Positions 33,001 to 36,000 of a stretch of DNA of 64,000 nucleotides are shown here, one piece after another (the stretch's first letter is position 1; every line of letters starts with the position of its first letter). The position numbers were made by a program. Where the stretch lies: assembly GCF_057098645.1 (NCBI RefSeq), contig NZ_CM169472.1, one strand, 5' to 3'.

Positions 33001-36000
33001 TTTTTCTGCTTCTGCCGGAGGAATATGGCCCAGCCTTTCCAGCAATCGTCGATTGTTATACCAGTCCACCCACGTGAGTGTGGCCAGTTCCACTTCTGCA
33101 CGGTTTTTCCAGCTCTTACGGTGTATTACCTCCGCTTTGTAAAGACCATTGATGCTCTCCGCCATCGCGTTGTCATACGAGTCGCCAGTACTCCCTGTTG
33201 ATGCCAGTAATCCGGCTTCCTTAAGCCGCTGCGTGTAGGCCAGCGATACATACTGAGAACCTTTATCACTGTGATGGATTGTGCCGGACGGCCGACGGGC
33301 CCACAACGCCTGCTCCAGTGCATCCAGCACGAATGTTGTTTCCATGGATGATGAGACCTGCCATCCCACGATGTATCCGGCGAACACATCAATGATGAAC
33401 GCCACATAAACGAAGCCCCGCCATGTGCTGACGTAAGTAAAATCAGCCACCCACAGCTGGTCAGGTCGTTCTGCCACGAACTGACGGTTTACGCGGTCGC
33501 CTGCGGCAACGGCTTTCCGGCTGATGGTCGTACGGACCTTTTTACCCCGGAGAACACCGGCAAGTCCCATAACTGCCATGAGACGTGCCACAGTGCATCT
33601 GGCCACTCTGATACCTTCCCGTAACAACTGACGCCAGACTTTACGCACACCGTATACCTGGTGATTTTCATCGTATACGCGCTGTATCTCTTTCTTCAGC
33701 CAGTCATCGTGCTGCGCACGGGCACTGCGTTTATCCGGATGATGTCGCTGTTGCTGACAGTGGTAATACGTTGACGGGGCAATATGCAGTTCGCTGCATA
33801 GCGGTCCGACCCCGTACTGCTCACGCAGCTTATCCAGCAGTGGCATCATTTTTTCCAGAGGCGGTCGAACTCCGCCTTCGCAAAATAAGCGGAAGCCTGG
33901 CGAAGGATATCGTTACTGCGGCGCAGTTCACGATTTTCACGCTCCAGCTCTTTCAGACGCTGACGTTCAGCGGTGGTGAGCCCGCCATCACCGCCCCCGG
34001 TATCCCGCTCATGCTGGCGAACCCAGACACGCAGAGTCTCCGGCGTACAGCCAATCTTTGGAGCAATGGAACAAATTGTCGCCCATTGTGAGTCATATTC
34101 ATCCTGACTTTCCAGAACCATACGAATCGCCCGCTGACGGACTTCGGGGGAAAAACGAGTATTTTTAGTCATCCTGTTTACCTCTTTCTCAGGGAGTTTA
34201 GTCTCCAGGATTTCCGGGGCGGTTCACTCTGATGTTTTTCTCCACCCATGCCAGCGCCTTATCACGCTCAATGGCGTTAACCCGGTCGCATTTTTCCTTC
34301 GACAGCTTCATGCCAGGAATAACAGGCTTACCATCCACCCGGGTGGCTCCACGGCAGATGGTCCAGATACCCGCACCATCACGGTATGCTGTGGTGTGGT
34401 TACCTTCCTTTTCATCCAGAAACTGGTCGAGGATTTCAGGCGCAGACGCCCCTGCACCAATCAGCGCCAGAACGGCAGCCGACAGGCCGTATCTGATTTT
34501 TGCGTTCATGGATATTTATCAGGGTTTATCGATTTCAAATCCCTGGATATGTTAAGTCTTCAGGCCAGCGGTGGAGTCTTCAGAGAACCCGTAATTATTC
34601 CCGGTAGTTTTCCTCTGTAGGTTATCAACACATCCTGCGCCTCTAAAATTACGGGACGCTTTTCCGGTAACGGACCATCCCCTTCACATAACCCGGCAGC
34701 AACATCCATGAAAAACTGCTTCGCCTGCTTTTTCGCCTCAGCTTCGTAAAACTCCAGCGTGGCACCTTCAGTACGGTCAAGACTAATCGCCACATCTGGC
34801 AACAACAGTGACGGATACCCACCAATTTCCAGTGCCACAGTAACAGTAATCTTATCCGGGTAATTATTTATCCCTTTAACAACCAGTTCGTATTTTTTCT
34901 TCATCACTTTACTCTCCCCGCGCCGCCTTACGCCGGTCTTCTTTAATCTTGAAATACAGGTTCGTCAGATATGTCAGCAGCCCAAACAGCAGACTCCCCA
35001 GCACGCCTATCGCCACCCACTGGGACGGAGAGACTTTGTCCAGCAGCTGCAGTAACCAGTATCCCGTCCCCACCGCTGACGTGGTGTATGACACACCCGT
35101 TGTGATTTTTTCCATCTGGTACATACCCCGTCTCCCGTTATCCGGAAGCTGACAACAATAAAAAAGCCACCAGTTAACTACTGATGGCTCTGATAACTCA
35201 TGCAGGCGTCTCAGACGACCCACTGACACTACCGGTGAGTTTAACGATACCTTCCATTTGACTGGCTCACTTTTTATGATGATGCCGGTGCATTTATCTC
35301 CAGCACCAGACTTTCTATCTCAACGCCATACGCTGCATTTTTTGTAACATCCGTCAGCGTCAGCGCATTCAGTCCCAGTGTCATACTGTCTTTTATAACC
35401 TGGAATGCCGGGCCAGCCACTCCATTCAGTTTCGGAGTAACCGTGGCACTGCCGGCGGTGAACACCAGCTCCAGCGTCTGCCAGTCGTTACCGTAATCGC
35501 CGAACTCCCCCAGCTTCGTGTTTCCGGCTTTCCTGTGATGCATCAGATTCACTCTGCCGTCAGTGGTCTGAGTGAAGTACGACATCAGGAACGGATTACC
35601 GGTACCCGTCATCGCCACACCATCAGGAACGGGAGCATCCGTATACAGATAAATCCCCAGCCCGAACTGATTGTTGGTCAGTGCGCCTGACAGGCGGAAC
35701 TTACAGGTCAGTCTGCCGCCCTGTGTCAGCAGGGTAATTGCGTCATCCACCGGATGCGTCAGGGACCAGGTTTTATTGCTCTGCTTGGTGATCTTAAATA
35801 CACCATCTGACAACTGAATTCCGCCATCCTTAATGCTCCAGCCCTGCGCAGCAGCCTCTCCGGCTGCCGGCAGCAGGGAGATTGTGCGAACGGACGTATC
35901 TGCAGACGGACCCGATGGCGTGTTGCCGCCGGGCGAGGGTTTGATTTCCGGTGCCTTACCACTGATGAAGGCTGAGGTGCGCCCGGCTGCGTTCAGAATA

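Follow-up and report, generated by a model that had tools for sequence, protein, structure and literature searches.

A DUF1327 (YdfR-family) gene behind a prophage pinholin gene: a probable accessory gene and possible RNase E ligand

What is the role of a small gene, apparently encoding a soluble protein, that sits between the holin and endolysin genes of a lambdoid prophage? The question is raised by an open reading frame (ORF) on the minus strand of a 64,000-nucleotide stretch of contig NZ_CM169472.1 (RefSeq assembly GCF_057098645.1), hereafter the window, that is, the whole stretch of DNA that was analysed. The initial annotation, made from the sequence alone, had regarded this ORF as a 115-aa gene that is translationally coupled within the lysis cassette, has no transmembrane segment, belongs to no nameable family, and might be a lysis regulator or a cargo gene. 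Here we place the ORF in a named family, compare its setting across phages and bacterial genomes, and weigh what its product may do.

The gene, its start codon and its lysis region

The ORF spans 34560..34907 and encodes 115 aa if translation begins at the GTG (34905-34907) that the initial annotation had adopted, which lies one codon 5′ of an ATG at 34904. The latter is the likely start of a 114-aa protein, because the RefSeq genes at the homologous position, named “YdfR family protein”, are 345 nt long, because tblastn alignments of DUF1327 homologues begin at residue 2 of the GTG-started ORF, and because of the spacing of GGGGAGAG, which stands 7 nt 5′ of this ATG. The ORF itself is thus real, and the gene most likely occupies 34560-34904, with the start and length of the earlier reading shifted by one codon. 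That it is a genuine DUF1327 gene is practically certain: it is more than a chance reading frame since it matches the Pfam profile PF07041 (DUF1327; gathering cutoff 25 bits) with 156.7 bits (E=1.8e-46, profile positions 1-92 of 93), has hundreds of homologues, and shows a pairwise dN/dS of 0.15-0.55 in its conserved core with synonymous sites near saturation. Five PHROGs match the protein as well, namely PHROG 406 and four related ones, each labelled “unknown function”, and BLASTP aligns it to YdfR of Escherichia coli K-12 with 47% identity over 74 aa (E=1e-23). Copies that are 100% identical occur in O157:H7 chromosomes, where RefSeq again names them “YdfR family protein”. The ORF can therefore be named after all, as Pfam DUF1327, PHROG 406 and the YdfR family of RefSeq; it is an already catalogued gene and represents no new kind of element.

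Table 1. Features of the lysis region and of the DUF1327 gene in the window
Feature	Coordinates	Strand	Basis and remarks
Rz spanin	31202-31669	minus	Pfam match; with the antirepressor-like gene, makes up the rest of the lysis region (31202..32392)
P22_AR_N antirepressor-like gene	31823-32392	minus	Pfam match
Lysozyme, C-terminal fragment	32663..32919	minus	PF00959 E=2.5e-10, profile positions 62-125; breakpoints
IS629/IS1203 (IS3-family) splitting the lysozyme gene	32920..34224	minus (transposase)	108-aa and 296-aa transposase ORFs; ALIL frameshift pseudoknot
SAR-type lysozyme, N-terminal fragment	34225..34509	minus	PF00959 E=2.7e-08; Ala/Gly-rich hydrophobic N-terminal segment
50-nt leader, DUF1327 stop to lysozyme ATG (34509)	34510..34559	minus	Conserved sequence, A/T-rich, no obvious Shine-Dalgarno
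DUF1327/YdfR-family gene	34560..34904	minus	114 aa plus stop; ORF listing, PF07041, PHROG 406, RefSeq
Variable C-terminal region, aa 74-114	34563..34685	minus	Linker and module “RPVILEAQDVLITYRGKLPGIITGSLKTPP”; predicted disordered; ends at the deletion junction
Conserved core, aa 1-73, homologous to K-12 YdfR 1-74	34686..34904	minus	Predicted strands 5-14, 18-27, 37-43; predicted helix 50-73
P21-type class II holin (pinholin), 71 aa, Met at codons 1 and 4	34909..35124	minus	PF04971 E=3.5e-32; PHROG holin families
Shine-Dalgarno-like GGGGAGAG within the last holin codons, for the DUF1327 ATG	34912..34919	minus	Sequence reading
617-aa SASA/DUF6645 sialate O-acetylesterase-like protein (NanS-p type), upstream neighbour	35274..37127	minus	PF03629, PF08410, PF20350

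The holin gene immediately upstream (Table 1) encodes a protein 74.6% identical to S of phage 21, whose record annotates a dual start and a pinholin. At the junction, which reads GGGGAGAG-TAA-AGTG-ATG, 4 nt separate the holin stop from the DUF1327 ATG; the ribosome-binding site is embedded in the 3′ end of the holin gene, and the DUF1327 product is therefore made together with the holin. The translational coupling proposed earlier thus holds on the 5′ side, whereas on the 3′ side a 50-nt gap intervenes before the lysozyme ATG. This leader is conserved (10 leader variants out of 21 found), and in cassettes that carry DUF1327 the lysozyme gene R is preceded by a conserved ...CCTGATAAATATCC ATG devoid of a purine-rich motif. 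A regulatory RNA in the leader was considered and rejected, as the analysis found no RNA structure there (z=0.08, no compensatory pairs). The GC content of the DUF1327 gene is 47%, as against 54-55% in its neighbours; an Rfam search gave no match inside the gene, and the window holds no second DUF1327 copy.

The PF04971 and PF00959 matches of the two neighbours confirm the placement between holin and endolysin genes, except that the endolysin gene is a pseudogene in the window. BLAST breakpoints against strain OkiPb01684, in which the locus is intact, delimit an insertion of a 1310-bp IS629/IS1203 element with a 3-bp duplication; the N-terminal fragment is collinear with the intact 177-aa lysozyme of that strain, and the two fragments cover complementary halves of the PF00959 profile. 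Because its lysozyme gene is split, the prophage is lysis-defective. The antirepressor-like gene and Rz have the same gene order in OkiPb01684.

A conserved core in a narrow accessory family

An alignment of 37 homologues confines conservation to residues 1-73, within which 16 positions are nearly invariant (Y5, E6, L7, V9, K10, G11, K18, V21, I40, R44, E46, G47, L50, Y53, E54 and A57), all of them kept in the window protein. In the AlphaFold2 model, the mean pLDDT of 10-residue blocks is 67-88 over core residues 1-70 and pLDDT falls below 50 over residues 80-114. Judged from alignment and model together, only the N-terminal 73 residues seem to constitute a conserved domain, the remainder being variable and probably disordered. 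Even within the core, homologues have at least three unrelated versions of a loop around residues 24-38, and chimeric cores are found. Between core subtypes pS reaches 0.5-0.9, near saturation, and together with the dN/dS values given above this shows that the core is under purifying selection. One close pair differs by 14 non-synonymous and 2 synonymous changes, numbers too low for any conclusion.

The product is predicted to be soluble, cytoplasmic and slightly acidic. Its pI is 5.5, with 9 K+R and 10 D+E in the core, and its highest 19-residue Kyte–Doolittle mean is 1.18, compared with 1.83 in the adjacent holin. The model consists of strands and an amphipathic helix, with no transmembrane segment of the kind expected of a holin or membrane antiholin, in agreement with the initial annotation.

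Beyond the core, product lengths vary widely: 71-72 aa (core only), 103, 104, 114, 176, 183, 211 and up to 287 aa. DNA alignment with the 176/183-aa form shows that the 114-aa allele of the window arose from the 176-183-aa forms by loss of some 0.47 kb at a CCACC microhomology. Gone with this segment are a helical stretch of roughly 65 aa and the greater part of the spacer that precedes the lysozyme gene. Among close relatives this short form, 50-nt gap included, is the common one: it is found at 74 of 80 IMG/VR loci, a set of near-identical loci that is informative on allele frequency and not on diversity. The fused or extended variants of 176 to 287 aa were considered as a functional clue and carry no informative domain.

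DUF1327/YdfR is a narrow accessory gene family of Escherichia and Shigella lambdoid prophages. DNA related to the gene is present in 3,158 of 5,426 complete E. coli genomes (58%), at up to eight places per genome, whereas clustering at 50% identity of 1.84 billion representative proteins leaves only 56 clusters for the family. In a set of one genome per species covering 100,044 species, it was found only in E. albertii, E. coli and two MAG contigs, both of which resemble E. coli phage DNA. In the phage collection, DUF1327 is carried within the lysis cassette by most records of Stx1a- and Stx2c-converting phages and by few Stx2a records.

The synteny comparison across lambdoid lysis cassettes yielded a twofold answer. 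The order holin, DUF1327, lysozyme, Rz recurs in at least ten phages, among them PhiR63_1, PhiR5_1, Evi, mEp460, PhiR42_1, Stx1_499 and Perceval, as well as in the K-12 prophage Qin (essQ-ydfR-rrrQ-rzpQ), E. albertii, E. coli E69 and one of the two MAG contigs, the other, shorter contig comprising only the DUF1327 match and a lysozyme. Seven of the eight lineages compared share the junction of holin stop, 4 nt and ATG, with 3 nt in PhiR5_1. Yet the gene is absent from many cassettes with the same holin type: S21-type holins occur in 436 phage records as against 101-106 for DUF1327, so that about three quarters of the records with this holin type are devoid of it. In phage 21 (P21) and Stx2 phage II the holin is followed directly by R, which in Stx2 phage II starts 4 nt past the holin stop and uses the holin-embedded GGGGAGAG. 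The 3′ side of DUF1327 is far less constant than the 5′ junction: in Qin and PhiR42_1 the gene overlaps the lysozyme start by 4 nt, elsewhere the gap can exceed 300 nt, as in Stx1_499 with 511 nt, and some gaps contain antisense ORFs. In phage phiSTEC1575-Stx2k another lysis set, made up of two holins and an M15 peptidase, follows the holin and DUF1327, and two divergent core-only homologues lie elsewhere, one after Rz (L091) and the other, in a genome of 6.4 Mb (L089), just 5′ of tail gene L. Recombination freely combines holin types with core subtypes of DUF1327.

The pinholin/SAR-endolysin/spanin mechanism can do without DUF1327, since the gene is missing from many phages of this holin type. 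The patchy presence, low GC content, other genomic positions and variable 3′ side argue for an optional, mobile accessory gene that has borrowed the translation signals of the holin, and we consider it quite likely that DUF1327 is such an optional accessory and not part of core lysis.

Candidate functions of the DUF1327 protein

Searches for a function by homology were uniformly negative. Neither NCBIfam, PADLOC nor PDB sequences, queried with the single protein and with a profile, gave relatives beyond the DUF1327 family, and 13 core sequences compared with Pfam at E<=10 found only DUF1327 itself. No lysis-function family was matched in the PHROGs, Pfam or NCBIfam, and four DUF1327 members had no family among the PADLOC-DB defence models at E<=0.1. 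Foldseek searches of the PDB and BFVD gave no match at E<=1e-3, and no significant structural or profile similarity to a dsRBD (alpha-beta-beta-beta-alpha fold) was detected; the predicted core thus appears to have no convincing structural relative in these collections. Two weak signals were discarded, namely a similarity to PepSY (YpeB) that covers about 22 residues and stays under threshold, and summed weak matches of two giant repeat proteins (P0141, P0161) to strand-like repeats, which do not amount to homology. The earlier statement that the protein has no homology to a known lysis accessory protein is therefore upheld by the Pfam, PHROGs, NCBIfam, PADLOC, PDB sequence and fold searches. 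Full-text literature searches yielded no functional study of DUF1327, the YdfR family or PF07041 as such, and a term search of a survey of Stx-phage lysis cassettes gave no passage on the gene.

The experimental data on the family are those on K-12 YdfR, and they concern RNase E, not lysis. A bacterial two-hybrid screen baited with RNase G recovered residues 1-72 of YdfR three times, and this fragment gave a stronger signal with RNase E constructs (PMC13232886, 2026). Of the Rne constructs paired with full-length YdfR, Rne1-597 alone gave a signal, and full-length Rne, Rne1-498 and Rne1-415 gave none; from lysate, Rne1-598 eluted together with Strep-YdfR, in an experiment without a nuclease control, and DNase-resistant nucleic acid co-purified with YdfR (PMC13232886). 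Because the co-elution was from lysate and had no nuclease control, the contact may be bridged by RNA. Overproduction of YdfR had little effect on the transcriptome or growth, and ydfR reads were almost nil in standard growth (PMC13232886). Separately, the Keio ydfR mutant scored positive in an envelope-leakiness screen (PMC3879167 supplements), a phenotype that we suspect may be polar, through transcription of the downstream SAR lysozyme gene rrrQ from the kan promoter.

Our best explanation, which we hold tentatively and with rather less than even confidence, is that of an accessory DUF1327 gene whose core may bind RNase E or RNase G and modulate RNA decay. On the late transcript, DUF1327 is translated from the ribosome-binding site in the 3′ end of the pinholin gene; by extrapolation from YdfR, its core would bind RNase E at the N-terminal, catalytic half, and likewise RNase G, whether directly or via RNA, and this contact would modulate RNA decay late in lytic growth. 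The protein would then rank functionally with other phage proteins that modulate RNase E, and would be neither a component nor a regulator of lysis. The support comes from the RNase E data on YdfR and from the homology to it, 47% identity over aa 1-74, with the nearly invariant residues kept in the window protein. Against it stand that the data come from a homologue only 47% identical, that full-length YdfR responded to a single Rne construct, that the co-elution may reflect an RNA bridge, that the core is acidic, which is unusual for an RNA binder, that the strict placement after the holin gene in Escherichia phages would suit a lysis role equally well, that the Keio ydfR mutant scored as envelope-leaky, and that overproduced YdfR barely alters the transcriptome or growth. 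Taken by itself, the RNase E- or RNA-directed function of DUF1327 is possible though doubtful.

The fixed position of the gene after S21-type holins, with a shared ribosome-binding site in all Escherichia examples examined, raises the alternative that DUF1327 is a cytoplasmic modulator of lysis timing, which might bind the charged C-terminus of the holin or the membrane-tethered SAR lysozyme and delay or sharpen triggering, much as the soluble antiholins RIII of T4 and LydB of P1 do. Its retention beside the holin where the endolysin module has been replaced (phiSTEC1575-Stx2k), the divergent homologue that is still in a lysis cassette, after Rz, and the envelope leakiness of the K-12 ydfR deletion are all in keeping with such a role. 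We nevertheless regard it as unlikely, given that the family has no homology to any lysis-category family, that P21 and most S21-type cassettes do without the gene, that the free recombination of holin types with core subtypes and the chimeric cores disfavour tight co-adaptation, that one homologue resides among tail genes, that the Keio phenotype may be polar on rrrQ, and that YdfR overproduction leaves growth unaffected. A purely cis-acting effect, in which the insert parts the lysozyme gene from the holin-embedded Shine-Dalgarno and so retunes or lowers the endolysin-to-holin ratio, the protein being unimportant, would accord with the use of GGGGAGAG by R in Stx2 phage II, the R leader without a purine-rich motif where DUF1327 is present, and the plasticity of the ORF in its 3′ half, with product lengths of 72 to 287 aa. 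It is hard to reconcile with the protein-level purifying selection, seen in 16 near-invariant positions across subtypes whose synonymous sites are saturated, with the persistence of core-only genes at unrelated genome positions, and with the lack of RNA structure in the leader, and we deem it very improbable.

A different possibility is a moron of benefit to the lysogen, expressed under some stress such as cold and conferring a host fitness trait unrelated to lysis or RNA decay. The GC content below that of the neighbours, a patchy distribution that still takes in 58% of the complete genomes of E. coli, at up to eight copies each, and retention both in the decayed Qin prophage and in the lysis-defective prophage of the window would all fit, as would the up-regulation of the Qin cluster under cold stress, for which PMC13232886 cites database evidence. 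That signal may merely reflect the adjacent csp genes, however; the gene shows no evidence of an independent promoter or terminator, its start codon relies on the holin 3′ end, so that expression is tied to the late operon, and almost no ydfR reads were seen in standard growth (PMC13232886). We judge this account distinctly unlikely. Between the two roles offered by the initial annotation, the balance leans to an accessory gene over a lysis regulator, cargo being the better fit to the patchy presence, low GC content, other positions and RNase E data. The window gene is probably an optional cytoplasmic add-on outside the lysis machinery, and possibly an RNase E-binding protein.

The outcome is thus an ORF placed in a named family with sharpened hypotheses on its role, and the prevalence of the family and its presence in Stx1a and Stx2c phages add to its relevance. 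DUF1327 is among the commonest uncharacterised prophage genes of E. coli. If the RNase E/G reading were true, its setting would matter in that the late transcript of Stx1a and Stx2c phages carries stx together with the lysis genes, and a protein that alters RNA decay or lysis timing could affect the amount of Shiga toxin and the time of its release. A bolder extension, to which we attach a rather low probability, is that temperate lambdoid phages have in the DUF1327 proteins their first RNase E/G-directed factors. Translated along with the pinholin, these would tune the stability of the long late transcript and so affect burst size, lysis timing or toxin yield, and the hypervariable loop at residues 24-38 would have adapted at the interaction surface.

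Comparison with known systems

The closest known system is YdfR itself (b1555, P76160; prophage Qin), which belongs to the same Pfam family, shares 47% identity in the core, and likewise lies after a class II holin gene, at the identical 4-nt distance, and before a lysozyme gene. The two differ in length and in their 3′ ends: YdfR has 103 aa and a stop that overlaps the rrrQ start (ATGA), whereas the window gene encodes 114 aa and is followed by the 50-nt gap, and the C-terminal parts are unrelated past residue 74. RNase E binding has been reported for YdfR only. The long 176-183-aa alleles (PhiR63_1, 2H10; clusters P0111, P0104) have an architecture identical to that of the window allele through residue 112, and differ in that the protein continues into a helical, coiled-coil-like tail some 65 aa long, and in that the spacer is longer by 230-330 nt and at times holds an antisense ORF.

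Among proteins that act on holins, the soluble antiholins RIII of T4 and LydB of P1 are likewise small, devoid of a transmembrane segment and encoded with a holin. The likeness of DUF1327 to them is confined to these traits, with no homology detected. Other optional inserts, such as bor or the antirepressor-like gene that lies between R and Rz, likewise vary among lambdoid lysis cassettes that are otherwise alike; they belong to different families, and DUF1327 differs from them in borrowing the ribosome-binding site of the holin gene instead of having its own signals. Finally, T4 Srd is described, in PMC13232886, which cites it, as binding the N-terminal half of RNase E and stimulating the decay of host mRNA. 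It resembles the DUF1327 core as we tentatively read it, as a small phage protein aimed at the catalytic half of RNase E, a likeness that may be one of functional analogy only; Srd is the product of an early gene of a virulent phage, whereas DUF1327 is a late gene of temperate phages.

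The interval between the DUF1327 gene and the lysozyme

The ATG of the SAR lysozyme is preceded by a leader of ~50 nt (window 34510-34559), whose sequence is kept across divergent cassettes, including the homologous loci L003, L004, L005, L030, L094 and L098 and the Stx1a phage Stx1_499 (L093), and in which we found neither an obvious Shine-Dalgarno sequence nor detectable RNA structure. Between the DUF1327 gene and the lysozyme, other phages (L003, L004 and L005) carry an extra 230-330 nt; within this extra DNA lie antisense ORFs of unassigned function (PHROG 2572 and PHROG 25324) and a GCCAGTG...CACTGGC hairpin. 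This space looks like an insertion hot spot. The extra DNA is deleted in the window allele.

Insertion sequences and the region upstream of the holin

The lysozyme gene itself carries an IS629/IS1203 insertion, and the lysis cassette of the prophage is therefore broken. A second IS3-family copy adjoins an autotransporter passenger ORF that may have been truncated by it, since no beta-barrel domain was detected in this ORF. On the other side of the holin, the segment from the esterase stop to the holin start (35119-35270) does not align to the intact relative, strain OkiPb01684, which is elsewhere 98-99% identical. A small patch upstream of the holin has apparently been replaced. Two sRNAs, STnc100 and the anti-GcvB sRNA AgvB, are placed between the esterase gene and the Q antiterminator region; a weaker Rfam match to AsxR overlaps AgvB.

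Features of the window and of loci carrying DUF1327 homologues
Feature	Location	Strand	Details
IS110-family transposase	window 28969-30165	+	DEDD_Tnp_IS110 + Transposase_20; flanked by phage packaging genes and lysis region
IS629/IS1203 (IS3 family)	window 32920-34224		within SAR lysozyme gene; 1310 bp + 3-bp duplication
sRNA AgvB	window 37275-37336	+	Rfam, 96.5 bits
sRNA STnc100	window 37337-37527	-	Rfam, 144.7 bits
Second IS3-family copy	window 43928-45141		ORFs of 296 aa and 108 aa
Autotransporter passenger ORF	window 45193-49083		AIDA/pertactin type; 1296 aa
Extra DNA	L003 3053-3373		DUF1327-lysozyme space
Extra DNA	L004 3084-3344	-	DUF1327-lysozyme space
Extra DNA	L005 2744-3040	-	DUF1327-lysozyme space
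Divergent core-only DUF1327 gene	L089 3001-3219		directly upstream of tail gene L; 6.4-Mb genome GCA_016865525.2
Divergent core-only DUF1327 gene	L091 503-718		directly after Rz gene

Divergence and distribution of DUF1327

Compared with that of Stx1_499 (L093 1501-1719), the DUF1327 core of the window (34686-34904) differs by 14 non-synonymous and only 2 synonymous changes, clustered around residues 24-49. Diversifying selection could lie behind this pattern, as could recombination over a small patch; the counts are too low for a test. Divergent genes reduced to the core (71-72 aa) also occur outside the holin-lysozyme slot, at L089 and L091. Within the phage collection, 41 Stx1a and 15 Stx2c records contain DUF1327, but among Stx2a records only 2-7 do so; for the S21-type holin the corresponding counts are 47, 17 and 124. 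The distribution of DUF1327 over Stx types may simply track phage lineage.
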